Shown here piece by piece: positions 14,897 to 51,142 of a stretch of 64,000 bases of DNA. The DNA is from Anaerolineales bacterium. Its GTDB lineage: Bacteria; Chloroflexota; Anaerolineae; Anaerolineales; UBA4823. The stretch spans positions 3,040,796-3,104,795 of the forward strand of contig JAOSJQ010000001.1 in NCBI GenBank assembly GCA_027494035.1. Reading direction: 5' to 3'. The position numbers and the translations under genes are program-made. How positions within the stretch are numbered: position 1 is the stretch's first letter; each line of letters opens with the position of its first letter. The notes under the pieces were generated by a model that worked only from the letters and a program-made list of their open reading frames with translations, was not told the DNA's origin and ran no database searches.

Positions 14897-16216
14897 TCAG
14901 CGGATGACCCACCCGGCGATTTCGTCCACCGCGACCGAGAAGTTCGCGGCGGATTCGGCGCGGATCGCCAACCCATACAAACCGCCCGAATATGTCCCGT
15001 CGGTGAACGAATAGAGCAGGGTGTTGTTGGCGTAAAACTGGAACTCCGCGCCCACGGCTGAGATACCCATCACATTGGTCTGGTTGGCGCCGGGGTGGAT
15101 GGCGGGATTGGTGGTCCAGTTTTGGATGTTGTTGAAATTTCCGTTGTCCATGCGGTAGACGCGATATTTTCCATCGCAGGAGAAGCTGAACACATAGCCC
15201 GAATTGATATTTCCATCTGGCTTGGAGGGCGCTCGCACGAGCATCCCGTAGCCGTCTTTTCCGTTACAGATGCTGCCTGGCATGAAGATCGTCTGCAGAT
15301 AGAAGTTATCCAGGAAGGAAGCCTGAGCAACCCGCCACTGGTCGCCGGTCGGTTTGAGCGCCGTGATCACCAGCTTCCCGTCTGCGATGTTGTAATTCAT
15401 GCCCGAGTCGGTGCCCAGGAAGAACGGACTGCGATCCGAGCCAAAGCCCACGGTCCAAGAAGGGTCGCCGAGGTTCTGCGGGCGGCTGACCGATGGCGAA
15501 CCGGCGGTCGGGTTGACGGTGGGGTTGGCGCCCTGAACGACCTGGATTTTGACCCAAAAAGGCGTTTTGGCGTCGCTGCCCAGCCCGAACTCGACGCCGT
15601 CGGTCGAGCGCAGCATCCAATCGCCCTGGAAGACGCCGGGGTTGGCGGGCGCTGTTTGGGGCAGAAAGATCTGCAGGGTATTTCCGGGCGGCACGGTCTG
15701 ACCGATGGGAACCGGGCTGGTACCGGACATCCGCTCGCCCCCGATGGAGACCAGCGAATAGGCGGGGTTCCAAACGCAGGTGCCGACGTTGCGCAGCGTC
15801 CAGGTCTTGATAAATTCCTGGTTGGGACCGAAGATCGAGAGATCCGGCACGGTTTCCTCTACCAGTTTTGCCAGATTAACGCAGCCGGGCAGGCTGGTCG
15901 CCGGCGGGGTGACGATCGTCGCTGCCTCGGTAGGGGCGGGGGTTGGCTGAACCTCGCTGGGCGGGACGGGGGTTGCTTCCGCGGTCGGGATTGCGGTGGC
16001 AGGCGGAACCTCCGTGGGCGCCGGCTGGGCGGTGGCGGTCAAGAATAGGTTGACCGCCATGGCGGTTTTGGTCTGGGCGACGATGGTATCCAGGTCGGGT
16101 CCGGCGGGTTTGCCGGGCAGGTTGCACGCAGAAAGGAGGATTGCGGCGAGAAGCAGGGTCGCAAGCGCTGACGCAAGCGGTTTGGGATTTATATGGGGTC
16201 TCATCAGTCTCTCCAT
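14897..16216 (-). CDS. secreted lipoprotein: NBR1-FW domain (paralog 5) fused to a C-terminal concanavalin/LamG-like (DUF1080-like) domain
   Basis: Lipobox AAILLSACN and a PT linker, then CVNLAKLVEETVPDLSIFGPNQEFIKTWTLRNVGTCVWNPAYSLVS...VPPGNTLQIFLPQTAPANPGVFQGDWMLRSTDGVEFG. The C-terminal ~190 aa (..GYGMLVRA..GYVFSFSCDGKYRVYR..GLYGLAIRAES..) looks like a jelly-roll lectin fold. The likely start is ATG 16204 (MRPHIN), preceded by GGAGAG. Confidence 0.75.
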   Translation of the reverse strand: MERLMRPHINPKPLASALATLLLAAILLSACNLPGKPAGPDLDTIVAQTKTAMAVNLFLTATAQPAPTEVPPATAIPTAEATPVPPSEVQPTPAPTEAATIVTPPATSLPGCVNLAKLVEETVPDLSIFGPNQEFIKTWTLRNVGTCVWNPAYSLVSIGGERMSGTSPVPIGQTVPPGNTLQIFLPQTAPANPGVFQGDWMLRSTDGVEFGLGSDAKTPFWVKIQVVQGANPTVNPTAGSPSVSRPQNLGDPSWTVGFGSDRSPFFLGTDSGMNYNIADGKLVITALKPTGDQWRVAQASFLDNFYLQTIFMPGSICNGKDGYGMLVRAPSKPDGNINSGYVFSFSCDGKYRVYRMDNGNFNNIQNWTTNPAIHPGANQTNVMGISAVGAEFQFYANNTLLYSFTDGTYSGGLYGLAIRAESAANFSVAVDEIAGWVIR

Positions 16217-16372: not shown

Positions 16373-17245
16373 TTAACGCCTGGCGCCGCTGGCATCCAGG
16401 TAACGATCGACCGCAGCGCGGACGGAAATTTGACCATGCAGCGCCAGATCCTGATACTGCACCGCCCAGTTATACAGGTGCGAACGGGCTTCCAGCAGTT
16501 CTTTTAGAACCAGATCGACCAACGGACCGCCCTGATCGAGATATCCGGTGGTGTAAAAATCCTGGATTGCCTGCGGATAATCGTATTCGAGGCGGACGAT
16601 TTCGGCGCGCCACTGGCTCGCCTGCCAGGTGAGCCGGGCATAACAAAGCCGCCGGTCGTGGTCAAAGGGCAAGCCGACCGAACCGGCGTTCACCACCAGC
16701 GCCTGGTCGAGCTGGCGGACCAAGGCGCGATGGGTGTGACCGACCACAAAACCGGCGAGGCGCTCCGCGCCAGCGTTCGGTCTGCCGTTCAGTCCAATTT
16801 TTGCCCGGAGCTGCGCTTTGCTCGTTTCGGGGTAGATCCCGTCGCGCCGCCCCAAGAGCGAACCATGCGTGAAACAAACCTGACCGCCGCCTGGATCGGT
16901 CAGCCATTGCGCCGCGGGCATGTCCGTCAGGGGGCGGACTTTCTTATCGAGCTGGCAATAGGTCCAATAAGAGGCTTGATGAACCTGGCGCGCCGCGCTG
17001 GATCGAGGCGCGTCGGGACCGGCGTGCAGGATGACGTAATCTTCGTGATTGCCCCGCACCAGCAGCCAGCCTGAATGCGCGACTTTGTCCAGCACGAACT
17101 CCAGGCACTCTGCCGGTCTGGGTCCACGATTGACCAGGTCGCCGTTGACGATGACGTGATCCGGCTTCCATTCATCCAGGTCAGCCGCGGCAGCCAGCAA
17201 AGCCGGCAGGTTGGCATGGACATCGGCAAGCACAGCAACTTTCAT
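16373..17245 (-). CDS. calcineurin-like metallophosphoesterase
   Basis: 290 aa. VLADVHAN, NGDLVNRGP, RGNHEDY and VGHTH motifs. Confidence 0.85.
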   Translation of the reverse strand: MKVAVLADVHANLPALLAAAADLDEWKPDHVIVNGDLVNRGPRPAECLEFVLDKVAHSGWLLVRGNHEDYVILHAGPDAPRSSAARQVHQASYWTYCQLDKKVRPLTDMPAAQWLTDPGGGQVCFTHGSLLGRRDGIYPETSKAQLRAKIGLNGRPNAGAERLAGFVVGHTHRALVRQLDQALVVNAGSVGLPFDHDRRLCYARLTWQASQWRAEIVRLEYDYPQAIQDFYTTGYLDQGGPLVDLVLKELLEARSHLYNWAVQYQDLALHGQISVRAAVDRYLDASGARR

Positions 17246-17252
17246 TTCGGGT

Positions 17253-18524
17253 TTATTCTACCTGGACCTGGATACAATCCGTGGGGACTTTGGCGAGGCG
17301 GGCGGTTTGATAGCGCGCCAGCAGCGTAAATGCCAATACGCTCAACGCGCCGATCACTGCGCCGCCGATCCAAATCGCCGAGGGTCCGTACGTGTCGCTG
17401 AGGAAGCCGCCTAACACCGGCGCGATCCCCATTGCCATCCCCCAGGTGAGGGCGTAGAGGCTCATGTAACGCCCGCGCTTATCGACGGGCGCATGGTTGG
17501 CTACATAGGCGCTCGAGGTGGGTACGATGATCAACTCGCCAATGGTCATTATAATCATGCAGACGAGGAAGCCTAGAAAGCTGTGCATGAAGGCGACTGC
17601 GCCAACTGCGACGGTATAAAATATGGATCCGAAAGCCACGACCGGTAAATCGGGGAAACGCTTGGTGATGCGGGTTATCAGAAGCTGCAATGTTACGACC
17701 ATCACCGCGTTGGTGGTGGGGATGAAGCCGTACAACTGCATCGGAACGTTGTGAGTTTCGGTGGCGTAAACCGGCAGCAAGACCCAAATCAACGTGGCGC
17801 ACATCGTCACCAGCGTGAAGGAGAAAATAAATCCCATATAAGGTTTGTCTTTGAGGATTTCCAGGTATCCGCCGAACTTCTCTTTGGGCGGCTTTTCGAT
17901 CAGGGCTGCGTCTTGGGCGAGCCGCGTCGCGCGCGCGGGCAGCGTCTCCCGCGCAAACCGCGTCAACAGCAGGCTGAATGTGATCATTCCACCGGCGGCG
18001 AAATAGAAGGCGAGCGTGTACGACGAGGCGGCGATGAAACCGCCAATCGCCGGACCGATTGCGACGCCCAGGTTGTTGCTCAGGCGCAGCAATGCATAAG
18101 CGTCGATGCGGTCTTCTTTAGGTACGAGATCCGCCATCATTGCGTCGGCGCCGACACGATAGAGCGGGTTGGCGGCGCCGTTCAGCGCAAGCAGCACGGC
18201 AAACTCGGCGAAGGTGGTGGCGTAGCCGAGCGCCAGGTAGCCCAGCCCATTGGCGACCAGGCTGAACACCATGATCCACTTGCGCCCGAAACGATCGATG
18301 AGCGGACCGCCGATGAATGAGGCGATCAGCCCCATCAGGGCGTTCAGGCTCAGCAGGCTGGCGATCGAGGTCAGGGGAGCGTCCAGGCGTTTGCTGGCGT
18401 AAATCAGCAGGAAGGGCCAGATCATGCTGGTGCCGACCGTGCTGATCAGCATCCCGACGAACATCAGCCAGAATTGAGGGGGGTATTTACGGTATTTCGC
18501 AGCAAGAGTAGAGATCACGATCAC
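17253..18524 (-). CDS. MFS transporter
   Basis: 423 aa with about 12 hydrophobic segments. The GGPLIDRFGRKW loop matches the MFS motif A. GTG start. Confidence 0.85.
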   Translation of the reverse strand: MIVISTLAAKYRKYPPQFWLMFVGMLISTVGTSMIWPFLLIYASKRLDAPLTSIASLLSLNALMGLIASFIGGPLIDRFGRKWIMVFSLVANGLGYLALGYATTFAEFAVLLALNGAANPLYRVGADAMMADLVPKEDRIDAYALLRLSNNLGVAIGPAIGGFIAASSYTLAFYFAAGGMITFSLLLTRFARETLPARATRLAQDAALIEKPPKEKFGGYLEILKDKPYMGFIFSFTLVTMCATLIWVLLPVYATETHNVPMQLYGFIPTTNAVMVVTLQLLITRITKRFPDLPVVAFGSIFYTVAVGAVAFMHSFLGFLVCMIIMTIGELIIVPTSSAYVANHAPVDKRGRYMSLYALTWGMAMGIAPVLGGFLSDTYGPSAIWIGGAVIGALSVLAFTLLARYQTARLAKVPTDCIQVQVE

Positions 18525-18558
18525 AGTCCAACGGACAGTCCAGCGGACAGCTCAACGG
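18523..18558. repeat. three tandem 12-mers (acagtccaacgg / acagtccagcgg / acagctcaacgg)
   Basis: Read directly from the sequence. They sit immediately upstream of the MFS start codon on the minus strand. A 10-bp-stem hairpin follows: ctcaacggcg (18551-60) / cgccgttgag (18574-83). Confidence 0.8.
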
Positions 18559-18622
18559 CGCCGTCAGCGACGACGCCGTTGAGAAATTATACACGATGAT
18601 CTTTCTTTAGCCTGAGTCGACG

Positions 18623-20443
18623 CTAGAGCGGCGCCAAACCGTCGAGGCGGAACAGATCGTATTCCTGGGCGAGTTCTCTGCGGAACTGGCGCGTGTAAAG
18701 GTTGAAGTACGGACCGCGCTGGCGCAGCAGCTCGTTGTGGGCGCCCATTTCAGCAATGCGCCCGTTTTCGATATAGATAATGCGGTCTGCCCGGCGGATC
18801 GTGGACAGCCGGTGGGCGATGATAAAACTGGTGCGCCCCTGCATGAGGTTCTCCATCCCTTTTTGGATCAACGCTTCGGTCAGGGTATCGACGGAACTGG
18901 TGGCTTCGTCCATGATGAAGATTTGCGGTCGGGCAAGCACAGCCCGCGCCAGGCTGATGAGCTGCTTTTGCCCGGTCGAGAGCAGGTTGCCGCTTTCGCC
19001 CACGTCTTGGAGGTAGCCGTCGTCCAGGCGGGCGATGAACTCGTGCGCGCCAGCCAGGCGGGCGGCTTCTTCAACTTCCTGATCGGTAGCGTCCAGCCGA
19101 CCGTAGCGGATGTTTTCGCGCACCGACCCCGAGAACAAGTGGGGCGTTTGAAGCACGATCCCGATGCGCGATTGGATGGAATGCTGAGTTAAATGCGTAT
19201 AGTCAACACCATCGATTAGTATCCGACCCTTTTTGGGCTCATAGAAACGGCAGATCAGGTTCACGATGGTGGTCTTGCCCCCGCCGGTGGGACCGACCAA
19301 GGCGATCGTCTCGCCATGCCGCACCTGCAGGTTGAAGTCGGTCAACACCGGTTTTTCGGGTTCGTAGTAGAAATCGACGTGGTTGAAAACGATGTCGCCG
19401 CGCAAGTCGCCCGGGTCGAAGGAGTCGGGTCGGTCTTGCAATTCAGGCACCGCGTCGATCAGCGAGAACATCCGCTCGGCGGAGGCGATTGACTGCTGCA
19501 TTTCGGCATAAACGCGGGCGAGGTCCTGGATCGGCCACGTCATAAACAGAATGTATGAGACGAACGCCTGGATGCCGCCGATGGTCATGCCGCCTACCTC
19601 GACGCTCAGCCCGCCATACCAGGCGACCGCGCCCAGCGCAAACGCGCCGATGATCTGGACGGTGGGGAGGAACAGGGCGGACAACCAGGCGGCGCGGTAA
19701 CTGGCGCGGTACATCTCGGACGTCAGCGCGTGAAACTCTTGGATATTCTCGTTTTCGCGCCCAAGCGCTTTGACCACGCGGACGCCAGTGATGTTCTCGT
19801 TGTAGGCGCCGGTGATCTTCGAGTTCGTTTTTCTGGCGCGGCGGAATTCGACCAGGATCTTTTTCCGAAACTGGATCGCGACCCAGGAGATAAAGGGCAG
19901 AATCGCGAGGACGAACAGCCCCAGCCGCCAGTTGATCTTGAGCATGAAAAACGCGGAGGTGAAGATGTTTGCTGTAGCCCAGCACACGTCCACCAGCCCC
20001 CAGGTAACCAGATCCGACACGCGTTCGGTGTCCGAGGTGACCCGCGACATGATCCAACCCACGGGCGTGTGGCTGTAATACGAGAGCGACAGATCCTGTA
20101 AGTTGTTCACCAGCTTCTTGCGCAGGTCGTAACGCACACGTTCGCCCAGGACGCTGGCTAAAAAGACAAATCCCAAAACCGTCACACCCTGAACCAGGAC
20201 CAGCAAAGCGTATTTAATGACGATCTCGATCAGGACCTGTTTGTTGTTCGCCATGATGCCTAGATCGACGATCTGTTTGCCCAGGTAGGTTAAATACCCA
20301 TCCAATACCGAGGTGATGACGATCGCGGCGACGAACCCGACGACCCAAATCCAGTGCTGCCGGGTCTGCGCCAGAATGCGCAGCACGGTCTTGCCGTTAA
20401 ATTGGGTGGTAAATTCTTCTTCTTCATAAAACTGAGCGGTCAT
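18623..20443 (-). CDS. ABC exporter, fused permease/ATPase half-transporter (second of pair)
   Basis: 606 aa. Six-TM N-terminal domain, Walker A GPTGGGKTT, signature LSTGQKQ and Walker B IFIMDEATS. Confidence 0.9.
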   Translation of the reverse strand: MTAQFYEEEEFTTQFNGKTVLRILAQTRQHWIWVVGFVAAIVITSVLDGYLTYLGKQIVDLGIMANNKQVLIEIVIKYALLVLVQGVTVLGFVFLASVLGERVRYDLRKKLVNNLQDLSLSYYSHTPVGWIMSRVTSDTERVSDLVTWGLVDVCWATANIFTSAFFMLKINWRLGLFVLAILPFISWVAIQFRKKILVEFRRARKTNSKITGAYNENITGVRVVKALGRENENIQEFHALTSEMYRASYRAAWLSALFLPTVQIIGAFALGAVAWYGGLSVEVGGMTIGGIQAFVSYILFMTWPIQDLARVYAEMQQSIASAERMFSLIDAVPELQDRPDSFDPGDLRGDIVFNHVDFYYEPEKPVLTDFNLQVRHGETIALVGPTGGGKTTIVNLICRFYEPKKGRILIDGVDYTHLTQHSIQSRIGIVLQTPHLFSGSVRENIRYGRLDATDQEVEEAARLAGAHEFIARLDDGYLQDVGESGNLLSTGQKQLISLARAVLARPQIFIMDEATSSVDTLTEALIQKGMENLMQGRTSFIIAHRLSTIRRADRIIYIENGRIAEMGAHNELLRQRGPYFNLYTRQFRRELAQEYDLFRLDGLAPL

Positions 20444-20484
20444 TCGAATGCTCCTGTTTGCGCTTAGTCCAAGCTCGCCGGACG

Positions 20485-22329
20485 CTAATCCAGGCTTGCG
20501 GACAGCATCGGTTCTTCACTCACCGGATCTTCACTCATTGCGATTTCCTGTTTCAACTCGCCTTCGATCCGCATCTGGATATCAAAAATCTGGCGGTAAA
20601 TGCCTTCCTCTTCGAGAAGCTGGCTGTGGGTGCCTTGCTGCACGATCCGCCCTTTATCCATAACCAGGATCTGGTCGGCGTTCATCACGCTTTGGATGCG
20701 ATGGGCGATGATGAAGGTCGTACGCCCGAGCATCAGGTTTTCGAGCGCGGTGCGGATTTCGGACTCGGTTTCGAAATCGACCGATGAAGTCGAATCGTCC
20801 AGGATCAGGATGCGGGGCTGCCTCGTAATCGTCCGGGCAATGGTGATCCGCTGCATTTGACCGCCCGAAAGCGTAACGCCTCGTTCGCCAACCAGCGTAT
20901 CGTACCCCTCGGGAAATGCGAGGATGCCTTCGTGGATTGCGGCGGCTCTGGCAGCGGCTTCGATCTCGTTTTGATCGACTTTTTCGCCGACGCCGTAGAG
21001 CAGATTTTCGCGGATCGTCCGCGAAAATAGAAAAGGCTCTTGCTCGACCACGCCGACCTGGCTGCGCAGGAACTTGCGCGAATAGCGGGTCAATTCAACG
21101 CCATCGAGCTTGATGGAGCCGCGCGTATATTCATAGAAGCGCGGCAGCAGGTTGACCAGGGTGGTTTTGCCGGAGCCGGTCGAGCCCAGCAGCGCGATGG
21201 TCTGCCCCGGTTTGGCGGCGAAACTGATGTCGATCAGCGCCGAGGTCTCGTCATCGTCGTATTCAAAACAAACGCCGTCGAATACCAGCTCGCCGCGGAG
21301 CGGTTGCTGGGGCTGGTAATCGCCTTGATCCAGGGGTTCGCGCTGTTCTTGGATGATGGTCAGAACCCGCGAGAACGAAACCAATCCGGTCGAGGTCTGT
21401 ACAATCAGCCGACCCAGGTTGCGCAGCGGCCAGATCAACCAGGCGACCAAGCCGGCGTATGCCACATAAGTGCCAACCGTGATCGTCCCGTTGATCGCCA
21501 TGACCGCGGCGATAGCCAGCCCGATCAGCATTTGAACCCCGCAGATGATGTCGGAGGCGGGCCAAAACAGCGCATGCATAGACGCCAGGCGCCGTCCCAG
21601 CAGGAATTTCTGCCAGTTTTCACGGTCGAACTTGGTTCGCTCATAATCCTGACGGGCAAAGGCTTTCACCACCCGAACGCCGCTGAGGTTTTCTTGCAGG
21701 GTGGTGGTCAAAACGGATTCTTGTTCCTGGTAGGCTTCGTATGCCTTAGTAACCTTGCGGAAGAAGAATATCGAAGTGGAGAGAATAAAAGGCACCGCGA
21801 TGATCGAAATCAGCGCCAGGAAGGCGTTCAAATATAGAACCGCCACAAAATTGACGGTGAACAAGAAAATGATCCGCCCGACGCCGATTGCCTGCTCAGA
21901 GAAGAAGCGCCGCAGCGCATCGACATCGGAGGTGGCGCGTTCGATCAGATCGCCGGTTTTTGCCTGGCTGTGATAGGCAAGGGTGAGGCGTTGGATGTGG
22001 TCGTACAGGAAGTCCCTTACTTTTTGGGTGATACCTTCCGCGGTGAAAGCCGCCAGCCTTCCGCTGGTGTACGTGCAGGCGCCTTCAAGAGTAGCCAGGG
22101 CGATAAATCCCAAGGCGACCCAGGGCAGCACCTGGCGTGCGGTATCGCTGCCGATGACGTGGTCGGCAAAGTAACGCAGCAGCAGAAATGTGGAAGTCTT
22201 GAAGATGGCTGATAAACCTAAACTGAGGTTGGCTACCACGTAGGTCAAGTGGAACCCATCCATCAACTTCCAGATGCCGAGCAGCTTGTTTTTTACAATG
22301 ATCTTGCTGAGATCGTCAGGGTAGTACAT
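20485..22329 (-). CDS. ABC exporter, fused permease/ATPase half-transporter (first of pair)
   Basis: 614 aa. Walker A GSTGSGKTT, signature LSGGQMQ and Walker B ILILDDSTS. Adjacent to and co-oriented with 18623..20443, which suggests a heterodimer. Confidence 0.9.
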   Translation of the reverse strand: MYYPDDLSKIIVKNKLLGIWKLMDGFHLTYVVANLSLGLSAIFKTSTFLLLRYFADHVIGSDTARQVLPWVALGFIALATLEGACTYTSGRLAAFTAEGITQKVRDFLYDHIQRLTLAYHSQAKTGDLIERATSDVDALRRFFSEQAIGVGRIIFLFTVNFVAVLYLNAFLALISIIAVPFILSTSIFFFRKVTKAYEAYQEQESVLTTTLQENLSGVRVVKAFARQDYERTKFDRENWQKFLLGRRLASMHALFWPASDIICGVQMLIGLAIAAVMAINGTITVGTYVAYAGLVAWLIWPLRNLGRLIVQTSTGLVSFSRVLTIIQEQREPLDQGDYQPQQPLRGELVFDGVCFEYDDDETSALIDISFAAKPGQTIALLGSTGSGKTTLVNLLPRFYEYTRGSIKLDGVELTRYSRKFLRSQVGVVEQEPFLFSRTIRENLLYGVGEKVDQNEIEAAARAAAIHEGILAFPEGYDTLVGERGVTLSGGQMQRITIARTITRQPRILILDDSTSSVDFETESEIRTALENLMLGRTTFIIAHRIQSVMNADQILVMDKGRIVQQGTHSQLLEEEGIYRQIFDIQMRIEGELKQEIAMSEDPVSEEPMLSASLD

Positions 22330-22358
22330 AATGTAGATTTCCTTGAAAGATTTTCGAA

Positions 22359-22392
22359 CAAAAAACCACGGGTTATTTTAGCACCCGTGGTT
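22359..22392 (-). terminator. strong intrinsic terminator 30 nt upstream of the ABC exporter start codon (candidate attenuator)
   Basis: The minus strand reads AACCACGGGU-gcuaaaaua-ACCCGUGGUU-UUUUGUU. This is a 10-bp perfect stem (22383-92 / 22364-73) followed by a U tract. Confidence 0.8.
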
Positions 22393-22417
22393 GGAGTAAC
22401 ACAAAGAAAAACTATTC

Positions 22418-22495
22418 TCAGCCGGCAGGCGCGCTACGACAAGGCAAATTGTAATCACCTTTGCGAACTTGATTGATTTCGACGATCATGCTCAA
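22418..22495 (-). CDS. candidate leader peptide (23 aa from ATG 22489, or 25 aa from TTG 22495)
   Basis: Hand translation gives (L S) M I V E I N Q V R K G D Y N L P C R S A P A G stop(TGA 22420-22418). AGGAGG (22508-22503) lies 7 nt before the TTG and 13 nt before the ATG. The ORF is below the track's 60-aa cutoff. Confidence 0.4.
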   Translation of the reverse strand: MSMIVEINQVRKGDYNLPCRSAPAG

Positions 22496-22530
22496 GCGCC
22501 TGCCTCCTTTTCTGCAATAGTTCGATTTGC

Positions 22531-22560
22531 AGTTTACCACGCATTAATTCTGCGTGTCAA
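22531..22560 (-). promoter_or_regulatory. sigma70-type promoter candidate with an embedded palindrome
   Basis: On the minus strand: TTGACA (22560-55), an 18-nt spacer, then TAAACT (22536-31). The spacer contains the palindrome CACGCA-N7-TGCGTG (22538-22556). Confidence 0.45.
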
Positions 22561-22600
22561 GGAAATTCGCCAATCGTTTCCGGAGATTTTGCAATTTGGT

Positions 22601-24337
22601 TTATGGCAATTCCGGCGCGGTGATTTCATCCTTTAGGCGGGCGAGCTTCAATTTGAAATCTTGCAGTTTGTCCTGGTATTCCGTCAGGTTTTGCTGCTCG
22701 GCGCGGACGAAACGGGTGTACGGCGACGTGGCATTATCGATCCTCTGGACGCTGCGATCGATCTCTTTTTGAAACTGACCCTCCAGAGTTTCAATTAGAC
22801 GATCGCGCAGCTCGCGCAATTTGGCGCTCAGTTCATTTTTTGCCAGCTTTCGCCGCGCGGGGATGATTACCAAGCCCAAAGCCGCGATGAATGTCGCCAG
22901 CAGGATGCCGGTCACATCTGCGGCGGCGGTGCTTGCCAGCACAGCCACCAGCGCGCCCAGCCCGATCGCGCCTACCTCCAACACCGCTGAAGCGGCAACA
23001 GCTTCCTGAGCGCCTTCCGCGATTTGGCGCGCTTCGTCGACTTTATCGTAGGTATCGATCACCTGCTGGGCTTGCCGTCCCACCGCATCCATGAATCGCT
23101 CACGGTCATATTCAAAGCTGCCCGGACCCAAATCGCCGACAATCCGACCTTGATGCGCGCGCCGGCGCTCCGCCAGGTGCTCGTTGACGGCTTGCCACTG
23201 GCGCAGGTCCGATTCGACCAGCCAATCGACCAGGTCGTTGACCTTGTTGTCGATTTGAGTGGGCATATCCGCGATGACTTTATTTTCGAATTCCGTCTGG
23301 ATGCGCTCTTTGCTTAACAGATCGAACACCCGCTTCAACCTGAAGGTGTCCTCGAAGTAATCTAAGCCGCGTTTCTCCATTTCGTAGAGCAGGTTTTCGA
23401 TATCCGCCATACGGTATTTGAAATCGCGCTGCATGTCTTCTTTGTACAGCGCCATTTGCTTTTCGACATCCGCCAGCATCTCGACGTCGTCCTGCAGCGT
23501 CTCCAGCCGGTTGGTTACGATGGTCAAATATCGATCCGCAATGTGCAAACCAACCCCGAGCGGGTTCAATAGCTTAATTTGGACCCGGCTGGTCTCGTCC
23601 AGCGTGTTGCGAATATAGTCCTCGAGCGGTTCGAACCGGCTTTCGGTCCACAACTCGGGTTTTCCGGATTTCGAGGCAAGCGCCTGACGCGCGCTGATTG
23701 GAAAGATTTCGGGTGAAACGCCAAGCAGGAGGCGGCTGTTCTCGTTCACGAATTCCAGCACCTGCAGGATTTCCTGTTCGGATTGCAGGATGTCAATCTT
23801 GTTTACAACTACCAGGATCTTCTTGCCCCAATTGCGGATCCTTTCCATGAACAGCCTTTCGCTCTCGGTGAAAGGGCGATCTGCGGAAGTCACAAACAGG
23901 ACTAAGTCCGAACGGGGGATGAAATCGGTGGTGATCGTCTCGTGCGTGCGGATGATCGCGTTGGTGCCCGGGGTGTCGACAATGCTGATCTCTTTCAACA
24001 ATTCAACTGGCAGGGTCAGCAGAAGCTGATTTTCGTTTTCCAGTTTTCGGCTTTGCGAATCCCCGTAGCGCAGGATATTGATCTGGGCGGTGGTGGGCGT
24101 GACCCCTTCAGTCAGGAACGCGCCGCCCAGCAGCGCATTGATGAACGCGCTCTTGCCGCCGTTGTACTCGCCGACGATCACCAGCAGGAATAAATCATCC
24201 AGTTGGGCGATCGAATCCAGCAGCGCCTGGCGGTCTTCGGGCGCAGCCGGGAACTCGACTAACGCCACGAGCAGTTCGTTCAGCAGGCGGCGCTCGCCGG
24301 CTAATAACACTTCTTGATCCGATGACAGGATTTTCAT
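22601..24337 (-). CDS. bacterial dynamin-like GTPase
   Basis: 578 aa. G1 GEYNGGKSAFINALLG, G3 VDTPGT and G4 VVNKID. Long helical stalk and a hydrophobic paddle near the C-terminus (AIGLGALVAVLASTAAADVTGILLATFIAALGLVII). Confidence 0.85.
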   Translation of the reverse strand: MKILSSDQEVLLAGERRLLNELLVALVEFPAAPEDRQALLDSIAQLDDLFLLVIVGEYNGGKSAFINALLGGAFLTEGVTPTTAQINILRYGDSQSRKLENENQLLLTLPVELLKEISIVDTPGTNAIIRTHETITTDFIPRSDLVLFVTSADRPFTESERLFMERIRNWGKKILVVVNKIDILQSEQEILQVLEFVNENSRLLLGVSPEIFPISARQALASKSGKPELWTESRFEPLEDYIRNTLDETSRVQIKLLNPLGVGLHIADRYLTIVTNRLETLQDDVEMLADVEKQMALYKEDMQRDFKYRMADIENLLYEMEKRGLDYFEDTFRLKRVFDLLSKERIQTEFENKVIADMPTQIDNKVNDLVDWLVESDLRQWQAVNEHLAERRRAHQGRIVGDLGPGSFEYDRERFMDAVGRQAQQVIDTYDKVDEARQIAEGAQEAVAASAVLEVGAIGLGALVAVLASTAAADVTGILLATFIAALGLVIIPARRKLAKNELSAKLRELRDRLIETLEGQFQKEIDRSVQRIDNATSPYTRFVRAEQQNLTEYQDKLQDFKLKLARLKDEITAPELP

Positions 24338-24338
24338 T

Positions 24339-25556
24339 ATGATGTGGCTCCCTGGGTGGAATTATAGCAAAAAAGGTATCAAACAATCAGGTTTCCGTTT
24401 ATACTCGATGTCGATGGTTGCGCAATCGAGGGCAGGTTATTGGTGGCTGCCAGTCATCCTTGCCCTGGAAGGGATGATAACGGAGATGAGACACCTGATT
24501 TGGAACACAAAGTGGGGCAACTGGCTGTTGGCGCTGTTGGTTATCGGCGGGCTAATTGCGTGTAGCCAATCTAGTATAATACAAACCACACTTAATACAC
24601 CCGTCAAAAACATAACCTCAGCCGTCACAACCCAAGCAGGGCAGACTTTCTCGCTCCAGTCGTTAACCAAAAGCGAAGAAGCGACCGATCTCATCTGGCT
24701 GGAGGGCGAGTTTGCAGTAACAGGCTTGGACTGGGTGCGGCTGATCGGGGTCCCAGCCGAAAATCAGCCGCAGAGGCTCAGTCAACTCCAGGATATCGAG
24801 ACCGGTCCGTACCCGATCCGCCTGACTACGAACCGGTTCAAGACCTCCATCGGCTGGGTGTCAAACGAGAATGAAATTATGACGCTGAAGATCAATGCTT
24901 CCGCTGCGCCGATGCAAATCGCGGAGCCGGATTTCCCCGTCACGGGTCTGGCGCTCAACCCGGCTGGCGACGAGCTTGTGTATGCAGCGTTGGATGGAAG
25001 CATCGTCAGGGTGGGGCTCGCTCCTGCAGCGCAAGCCGCAGCAGAATGGCAGGCGCCGCACTGGCTGGCAAACCTGTCCTATTCACCCGACGGGAAACAA
25101 ATTGGGGGCGCGGATCTGGCAGAGTTCAAGGTGTATATCTATGAACTGGATGGCAGCTTGACTTCCACACTCGAATGGCAGGGCGCGGTGAGCCCCGCGC
25201 TTTATGGGGTGCATTTCAGCCCCGACTGGAAAACGCTCGCCTGGGTGAACGGGAGCGTGGTGCAGCTTATGAACTTGAACACGGGCAAAGAGACATATCT
25301 GCTGAGCCACGAAGATGCCGTGAGCTATGCAATCTGGTCGCCGCATGGGAGCTGGTTTGCCACCGCTTCTGCGGCAAACATCGGCGGCAACCTTACGCCG
25401 GTGGTTGACATCTGGAGGCAATCCAACGGTGAACTGGCAGCCAGTTTCCCGCAAGATTCGCCAATTCAGAGCCTATCTTTTTCACCAGATGGAAGTAAAA
25501 TATCGGTTTTAGATGCAAATTCAACCGTTCGAATTTTCGCGCTGCCGGATCAGTAA
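24339..25556 (+). CDS. WD40/TolB-like beta-propeller lipoprotein
   Basis: Repeats YSPDGKQ, FSPDWKT, WSPHGSW and FSPDGSK. Lipobox LLVIGGLIACSQ. The likely true start is ATG 24486 (MRHLIWN). Confidence 0.7.
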   Translation: MMWLPGWNYSKKGIKQSGFRLYSMSMVAQSRAGYWWLPVILALEGMITEMRHLIWNTKWGNWLLALLVIGGLIACSQSSIIQTTLNTPVKNITSAVTTQAGQTFSLQSLTKSEEATDLIWLEGEFAVTGLDWVRLIGVPAENQPQRLSQLQDIETGPYPIRLTTNRFKTSIGWVSNENEIMTLKINASAAPMQIAEPDFPVTGLALNPAGDELVYAALDGSIVRVGLAPAAQAAAEWQAPHWLANLSYSPDGKQIGGADLAEFKVYIYELDGSLTSTLEWQGAVSPALYGVHFSPDWKTLAWVNGSVVQLMNLNTGKETYLLSHEDAVSYAIWSPHGSWFATASAANIGGNLTPVVDIWRQSNGELAASFPQDSPIQSLSFSPDGSKISVLDANSTVRIFALPDQ

Positions 25557-51060: not shown

Positions 51061-51142
51061 TGGGGAAGAGGGGACTTGAACCCCTACGCCTTGCGGCACT
51101 TGATCCTAAGTCAAGCCTGTCTGCCAATTCCAGCACTTCCCC
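51061..51142 (-). tRNA. tRNA-Leu (anticodon UAG), type II with a 13-nt variable arm; no encoded CCA
   Basis: Hand-folded cloverleaf: acceptor GGGGAAG/CTTCCCC, D-stem CTG/CAG, anticodon stem CTTGA/TCAAG with loop CT-TAG-GA, variable arm TGCCGCAAGGCGT, T-arm AGGGG-TTCAAGT-CCCCT and discriminator A. Total 82 nt. Confidence 0.9.

Follow-up and report, generated by a model that had tools for sequence, protein, structure and literature searches.

The 64,000-nucleotide (nt) stretch analysed here, called the window throughout, comes from an Anaerolineales bacterium of the phylum Chloroflexota (GenBank assembly GCA_027494035.1, contig JAOSJQ010000001.1, positions 3,040,796 to 3,104,795). On its minus strand, two ATP-binding cassette (ABC) half-transporter genes, ABC1 and ABC2, are preceded by a leader that carries a promoter, a Shine-Dalgarno (SD) sequence, a short open reading frame (sORF) and an intrinsic terminator, and it is this leader that concerns us. 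A first-pass annotation had described these elements, together with a palindrome in the promoter spacer, and had asked whether they constitute a ribosome-mediated attenuator of the exporter; all of them, and the exporter start, are present where it had placed them (Table 1). ABC1 and ABC2 together form one degenerate ATP site, and the solved relatives of the pair are the heterodimeric exporters TmrAB, TM287/288 and BmrCD, with BmrD among those of ABC2 (E about 1e-92). No NCBIfam model attained its cutoff for naming the exporter.

Table 1. Leader elements and exporter genes in the window, with positions numbered from its first nucleotide.
Feature	Position	Strand	Remarks
−35 hexamer TTGACA	22555..22560	−	10 of 12 consensus matches jointly with the −10; TTGACN at the same position in 44 of 44 leaders
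−10 hexamer TAAACT	22531..22536	−	18-nt spacer; TG two bases upstream
Palindrome CACGCA-N7-TGCGTG	22538..22556	−	Within the promoter spacer; real, not conserved
Helix P0, strand in the 5′ untranslated region (UTR), CGAACUAUU	22516..22524	−	Pairs with 22408-22416 and closes the predicted off-state structure; RNAfold minimum free energy (MFE) structure
SD AAGGAGG of the leader ORF	22503..22509	−	A[AG]GGAG-type SD in all leaders
Segment a, GGCAGGCGC	22496..22504	−	Predicted 5′ strand of the anti-antiterminator; occupies the spacer between SD and start and shares bases with the SD
Leader sORF	22418..22495	−	TTG at 22495 (25 codons) or ATG at 22489 (23 codons), to TGA at 22420-22418
b-box, CCUUGUCGUAGCGCGCCUG	22426..22444	−	3′ half, reaching 22424, is the predicted switch strand pairing with a or c
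Helix P0, post-stop strand, AAUAGUUUU	22408..22416	−	RNAfold MFE structure
Intrinsic terminator	22357..22392	−	10-bp stem (22392-22383 with 22373-22364), 9-nt loop, U run
Segment c, CGGGUGC	22381..22387	−	Upper terminator 5′ arm plus two loop bases; predicted antiterminator partner of the b core
ABC1, ABCB-type half-transporter	20485..22329	−	Walker B ILILDD, without the catalytic Glu
ABC2, partner ABCB-type half-transporter	18623..20443	−	Walker B IFIMDE; atypical signature LSTGQ

The window promoter is the sole 10-of-12 match within positions 18000-25000. Promoter-like matches in the region (five found, 3.7 expected from shuffled sequence) are not above expectation; that the leader elements are more than chance follows instead from their conservation, in the same layout, in 44 related leaders. 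The sORF encodes (LS)MIVEINQVRKGDYNLPCRSAPAG, so that the peptide ends in LPCRSAPAG, and 25 nt past its stop codon begins a hairpin with a perfect 10-base pair (bp) stem, AACCACGGGU/ACCCGUGGUU, spanning 22392-22364 and followed by UUUUGUU down to 22357. The hairpin has a free energy of −13.9 kcal/mol for its 8-bp core. A standard terminator scan overlooked it, the loop limit of the scan being 8 nt and the loop of the hairpin 9 nt; RNAfold recovers it. A scan for the b-box found a single copy of the leader in the window.

The evidence that these elements form a functional unit is comparative. With the membrane domain of ABC1 as query and one genome taken per species, we collected 80 loci at 59-81% identity, nearly all from Anaerolineae or from Chloroflexota metagenome-assembled genomes. 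A recognisably homologous leader is present at no fewer than 44 of the 81 ABC1-ortholog loci, window included. All 44 leaders have a promoter of the form TTGACN-N17/18-TAnnnT (18-nt spacer in 41, TAAACT in 30), an sORF 23-34 codons long with its start 7-14 nt past the SD, and an intrinsic terminator of −11 to −23 kcal/mol; the SD columns are invariant or nearly so in the leader alignment (alignment A1). Near the end of the sORF lies a near-invariant 19-nt element, the b-box (family consensus CCUUCUCGnAGUGCGCCUG). The terminator begins 33-52 nt after the core of this box, and the sORF stops 8-21 nt past that core throughout the family, and 9-21 nt past it in these 44 leaders, whatever its frame. 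Conservation of the sORF had been put forward as a check on the first-pass proposal, and the outcome is that the sORF is kept as a feature in 44 of 44 leaders, in start placement, in length and in a stop after the box, while its frame varies.

In most relatives b is directly followed by a small covarying hairpin, h1, whose loop or 3′ arm contains the sORF stop. In the window and its nearest relatives, h1 is replaced by the pairing between the 5′ UTR and the post-stop region (helix P0 in Table 1), and a pairing analogous to P0 was found in leaders L001 and L004. Some leaders carry further elements. A 5′-UTR motif, GUUAAU..AAUUCUAAG, is conserved in many of them (L024, L028, L040, L041, L058 and others), just before the SD and about 10-30 nt upstream of it. 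In L090:98-307 and L146:4373-4574, the leader terminator is followed within about 40 nt by another terminator-like hairpin and U run (alignment A1, columns 255-310), which looks like tandem terminators after one leader.

The uniform promoter layout (TTGACA, 18-nt spacer, TAAACT) may reflect the preference of the group's housekeeping-sigma promoters. The palindrome in the window promoter, which had been suggested as a possible operator, did not hold up in this role: a 6-bp inverted repeat occurs in the window alone among the 44 promoters, the others having 0-5 bp, and the palindrome is probably not an operator, to judge from this sequence comparison. The promoter also bears on a possible objection to any attenuator, namely that the hairpin merely terminates the dynamin-like gene upstream, while a separate promoter beyond the hairpin serves the exporter. 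That gene lies on the same strand and ends only 40 nt upstream of the −35 hexamer. Nevertheless, this arrangement is most improbable as an explanation of the family, because every one of the 44 leaders has its own conserved promoter between the upstream gene and the hairpin and a dynamin-like gene is found upstream at only six of the 44 leader loci. Moreover, the ABC1 ATG (22329) follows the U run after a gap of only 27 nt that accommodates nothing but the ABC1 SD, and no promoter-like site was found in this gap.

The first-pass annotation had found no antiterminator by eye. The comparison now identifies one, as a pairing between the b-box and the 5′ arm and loop of the terminator. The 3′ half of the box, b, is complementary both to segment a, around the SD, and to segment c, in the terminator. 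In the window, a pairs with GCGCCUGCC (22432-22424) over 9 bp, with a duplex energy of −22.1 kcal/mol as compared with −13.6 ± 3.2 for shuffled b; the window b:c helix joins segment c to GCGCCUG. In most relatives a:b pairs AGGCGCACUUC with GGAGUGCGCCU, and b:c pairs GGUGCACUCC, the terminator box, with GGAGUGCGCC. Over the 44 leaders, the mean energy is −18.1 kcal/mol for a:b (−10.0 for shuffled b) and −15.9 kcal/mol for b:c (−10.8 for shuffled b), and in 39 of them b outpairs every other window of the sORF for both partners. The b:c helix overlaps the terminator 5′ arm, so that the antiterminator and the terminator are mutually exclusive.

Several features of the family support both pairings, and a structure that competes with the terminator was among the checks proposed with the original annotation. 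In a 92-leader alignment, 86.9% of b:c cells are paired, and sliding the partner by 1-3 columns lowers this figure to 30-50%; in the core a:b helices the paired share of cells across the family is 86-92%. Of 44 leaders, 39 carry the motif GGYGC in the 5′ half of the terminator, as do only 4 of 32 other terminator-like hairpins from the same DNA. The terminator stem itself shows compensatory changes at 8 of its 10 pairs, and three kinds of stem occur in the family (CCACGGGUGC.., CCACGGUGCA.. and GGCUGUGGCGCAC..), each of which retains complementarity to b. The register of segment a on b shifts in step with the kind of terminator stem. Finally, in most leaders b:c employs a conserved CUCC in the terminator loop that is dispensable for the terminator itself, and the conservation of this CUCC is accounted for by b:c only.

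The b-box lies within a reading frame, and its conservation could in principle reflect selection on the peptide. The peptide end ..PxR[SI]AP[VA].. is found in 40 of the 44 genome leaders, its Arg codon uses all four CGN codons, and R-x-A followed by Pro resembles known arrest motifs; the shared C-terminus caused an arrest-peptide reading to be favoured at first. Under that reading the C-terminal L-P-x-R-S-A-P-V/A would arrest the ribosome, intrinsically, in the manner of SecM RAGP or of RAPP peptides, or in a drug-dependent, Erm-like manner, and the stall would set the RNA fold. It was dropped after analysis of frames and codon positions. Within the box, third codon positions are as strongly conserved as the other two, reaching 86-100% at five of eight codons, with Pro always CCU, Ala always GCG and Ser always AGU. 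Upstream of the box, substitutions between related leaders are spread flatly over codon positions 1, 2 and 3 (129:138:163), so that no clear protein-level constraint is apparent there. In four of the 44 genome leaders the sORF crosses the box in a second frame (..LLGVRLxTV*), and the metagenome leaders add at least two further cases of this second frame and at least nine of the third (..FSECAC*). In each of these off-frame leaders a separate start lies close to the SD, and the common frame offers no start that could be used. Furthermore, masked folding (below) predicts that a ribosome stalled at the peptide end would cover b and so favour the terminator rather than read-through. A nascent-peptide sensor is thus an unlikely explanation of the leader.

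Because the box is read in all three frames, the conserved C-terminal peptide (..PxRSAPV) is best regarded as a by-product of conservation of the RNA. About 100 leaders, covering all three frames, retain an SD and a start codon as well as a stop that closely follows the box. What is conserved is translation over the box as far as a stop shortly after it, and not the peptide that this translation produces.

We modelled the effect of ribosome position by masked folding of transcripts cut before the terminator 3′ arm, a thermodynamic calculation applied to the 44 leaders. With no ribosome mask, a:b formed in 28 of 44 leaders. A footprint over codons 0-3 allowed b:c to form in 43 of 44, and also in the window copy, while a footprint over roughly the last nine codons concealed b. 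In the window, a ribosome on the start codon spans segment a, and one on the stop codon spans about 22435-22409, all of b included. In this model the position of the ribosome would set the structural outcome.

The predicted pairing scheme is that of a classical 1:2 / 2:3 / 3:4 attenuator. In the off state, segment a would pair with the b core to form an anti-antiterminator that partly hides the SD; the c:d terminator would then form and RNA polymerase would stop before the ABC genes. In the on state, the b core would pair with segment c, the terminator would be blocked and transcription would enter ABC1-ABC2. During normal translation the ribosome would cross b and halt at the stop 8-21 nt further on, leaving b masked or available only to a, and termination would follow. 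Termination would also follow in the complete absence of translation, through formation of a:b. Only when ribosomes are held back or queue on the start and the first codons, coincident with polymerase running ahead, would a be masked and b be naked as c emerges, with read-through as the result. The natural signal would then be slowed or stalled early translation, caused most plausibly, by analogy with known systems, by ribosome-targeting antibiotics. Overall, the comparative evidence supports the proposal of the first-pass annotation, and we consider it likely that the leader acts as a transcription attenuator that depends on the ribosome, is driven by a promoter of its own and stands before a heterodimeric ABC exporter.

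A number of observations weigh against this interpretation. Sequence comparison and thermodynamic prediction are its whole basis. At equilibrium the full-length leader RNA always forms the terminator, even under ribosome masks, which means that the switch must be kinetic; equilibrium folding of the full leader under masks was dropped as uninformative for such a switch. In the window's own copy the antiterminator is predicted to be weak, b:c having 7 bp, two of them G-U, and an energy of −12.5 kcal/mol that 20% of shuffled b sequences equal. The b strand is nearly invariant, which limits true covariation in both of its helices, a:b and b:c. Leaders from the metagenome contigs were selected by the b-box itself, and the structures tested on the alignment derive from a single family member, an origin that gives them an advantage over the slid controls. 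Since the leaders are related to one another, the counts given above are not counts of independent events, although three terminator types and several operon classes provide some independence.

To these points must be added the behaviour of the 5′ half of the box (CCUUCUCG in the family; CCUUGUCG in the window, 22437-22444), whose conservation has no reason in the attenuator model: it lies outside both alternative helices, in the window as in the L001-L200 leaders. This half is anti-SD-like. It matches the leader's own SD weakly and inconsistently, in 21 of 44 leaders, and the SD was dropped as its candidate partner. A box that is near-invariant over deep divergence and across unrelated operons, while neighbouring helices covary, and whose 5′ half has no assigned partner, might be the binding site of a factor acting in trans. 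An RNA-binding protein, a small RNA or a metabolite could stabilise one of the folds, and the sORF would then be an accessory. We think this improbable. Neither a riboswitch nor a protein-binding site needs the SD, the start and the stop past the box that about 100 leaders keep. The interior of the sORF is variable in length and sequence, with no conserved pocket in alignment A1; upstream genes differ between leader loci, with no conserved regulator gene adjoining the leaders; and no Rfam family matches.

The leader is not confined to ABC1 orthologs. A scan of metagenome contigs for the b-box gave at least 120 matches, and among the matches listed about 60 show both the stop codon and the U run at the expected places. 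The genes downstream of the listed matches include ABC1 orthologs, fused ABC exporters of a second class with about 27% identity to ABC1, ABC ATPases of about 300 amino acids (aa), an MFS transporter, GNAT acetyltransferases, HAD hydrolases and proteins without a Pfam match, and the b-box together with a matching terminator box (GGUGCACUCC) is common to the leaders of at least six unrelated gene classes. Leaders that use the third frame (L140, L149, L158, L093 and L131; ..FSECAC*, stop 8 nt past the box core) stand mostly before genes for ABC ATPases of about 300 aa, which suggests that leader subfamilies track operon classes. In L154, L187 and L189, a small, conserved open reading frame of 107-141 aa (..MTIDRID.PNS...W[IL][GS]RAWRLLT..), without a Pfam match, comes directly after the leader, at about 285-700 nt past the box, and precedes GNAT or MFS genes.

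The range of downstream genes bears on a further explanation, in which the sORF is the gene of a secreted or bioactive peptide exported by the ABC pair and a leaky terminator sets the ratio of peptide to exporter transcript. The order peptide gene, terminator, ABC exporter is indeed common in bacteriocin loci. Yet the peptide is read in three frames and is not conserved at the amino-acid level, the same leader stands before GNAT, HAD and MFS genes, a domain scan found no peptidase domain in either ABC exporter protein, and the alternative pairings would be left unexplained. We regard a peptide gene as very improbable. Gene content and the precedents of vmlR and bmrB lead us instead to infer, by analogy, that this combination of efflux genes with candidate modifying enzymes is in keeping with a response to toxic compounds, translation inhibitors being the simplest candidates. 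The attenuator would probably serve to turn on export and drug-modifying genes when ribosomes slow. A more far-reaching view, which we hold with much less conviction, is that the leaders constitute a class-wide Anaerolineae regulon with one common sensor, either a general detector of transcription-translation uncoupling or an unknown protein, RNA or small molecule that reads the box together with the ribosome. Such a co-reader is considered because the box is frozen beyond the needs of base pairing and its 5′ half is partnerless; if true, reading of the box by a factor and the ribosome together would be an undescribed hybrid of an attenuator and a riboswitch or protein switch.

The genes around the exporter deserve brief mention. 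Downstream of ABC2, on the same strand and separated by short gaps, are genes for an MFS transporter (17253-18524) and a metallophosphoesterase (16373-17245), which may belong to the ABC1-ABC2 transcription unit. Three neighbouring genes encode domains that are better known from eukaryotes: a protein with an Ig-like N_BRCA1_IG domain (14897-16216, minus strand), the dynamin-family GTPase (22601-24337, minus strand) and a WD40 beta-propeller protein (24339-25556, plus strand). A tRNA gene (51061-51142, minus strand) is the only Rfam match within the window.

Anaerolineae are abundant in sediments, sludge and hot springs, and to our knowledge almost no gene regulation has been described in this class of the Chloroflexota. 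The leader family offers a clear list of parts and a testable model for the switching on of efflux pumps and candidate drug-modifying enzymes, and screening metagenomes for its box can mark out inducible, resistance-type genes. The reading of one box in three frames amounts to a natural experiment in which a requirement for translation can be told apart from a requirement for a given peptide; in the well-studied Erm and Cat leaders the two are difficult to distinguish.

A scan of Rfam 15, which had been proposed as a means of excluding a known riboswitch, found no family matching the window leader or any of ten consensus-type leaders at or near the gathering score, and full-text literature searches found no leader-peptide attenuator described for Chloroflexi or Anaerolineae. 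The family is thus apparently undescribed, widespread in a poorly studied phylum and of a familiar type of mechanism. In the E. coli trp leader, four segments pair as 1:2, 2:3 and 3:4; a ribosome at the leader stop covers segment 2, which leads to the terminator, while stalling on segment 1 leaves segment 2 available to form the antiterminator. The leaders described here share this four-segment scheme (for the trp leader see also the discussion in PMC4191407). They differ in that segment 1 is the spacer between SD and start rather than a run of regulatory codons, that no amino acid is over-represented in the sORFs, and that the genes controlled are transporters and modifying enzymes and not biosynthetic genes.

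The comparison with bmrB-bmrCD of Bacillus subtilis, drawn by the first-pass annotation, stands in part. There, translation of bmrB controls an intrinsic terminator before bmrCD, and a 53-aa open reading frame contains three alternative stem-loops and the terminator; the anti-antiterminator, antiterminator and terminator logic based on this upstream open reading frame (uORF) has been shown experimentally (Reilman et al., 2014, PMC4191407). The principle of a leader ORF and an intrinsic terminator before a heterodimeric, multidrug-type ABC exporter with one degenerate ATP site is common to both. Size and layout are not: the window sORF is half as long (23-25 codons) and ends 25 nt before the terminator, which in bmrB lies inside the ORF. 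Induction by 50S-targeting antibiotics is a mark of bmrB-bmrCD, and no AbrB control is known for the present leaders. Homology of the two leaders is unlikely given size, layout and phylum, a judgement made on descriptions of the two, with their sequences unaligned. Macrolide-resistance leaders that act by transcription attenuation, such as the msrD leader (cited in PMC9226507 and 10.1101/2021.11.29.470318), likewise have a short ORF upstream of an intrinsic terminator, and a stalled ribosome favours read-through. The stall there is specific to a peptide and a drug; in the present family the peptide is not conserved at the amino-acid level. The family differs in the same way from arrest-peptide sensors of the SecM/RAPP and Erm-leader types, which are marked by amino-acid selection on the peptide.

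The vmlR leader of Bacillus subtilis has an anti-antiterminator holding a uORF, an antiterminator and an intrinsic terminator, all shown experimentally (Takada et al., 2022, PMC9226507). The uORF has three codons and lies in a bulge; when a ribosome stalls at its start, the antiterminator can form, with a small hairpin at the antiterminator apex, and the regulated gene encodes an ABCF factor (PMC9226507). The two systems resemble each other in their three-tier logic, in that a ribosome at or near the start prevents the anti-antiterminator (a prediction from masked folding in our case), and in the presence of h1 at the antiterminator apex of most family members, as SL-2 in vmlR. They differ in the sORF, whose 23-34 codons here stretch across the entire anti-antiterminator (SD spacer to 3′ strand); in the masking of the switch strand by a ribosome that finishes the sORF; and in the genes downstream, which here are exporter, GNAT, HAD or MFS genes in place of ABCF. 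The two leaders, from different phyla, share no sequence similarity. By analogy, the proposed logic is closest to that of the vmlR and trp leaders, and we conclude that the Anaerolineae leaders are a new family within a known kind, working like vmlR, bmrB and the trp leader while being a member of none of them.

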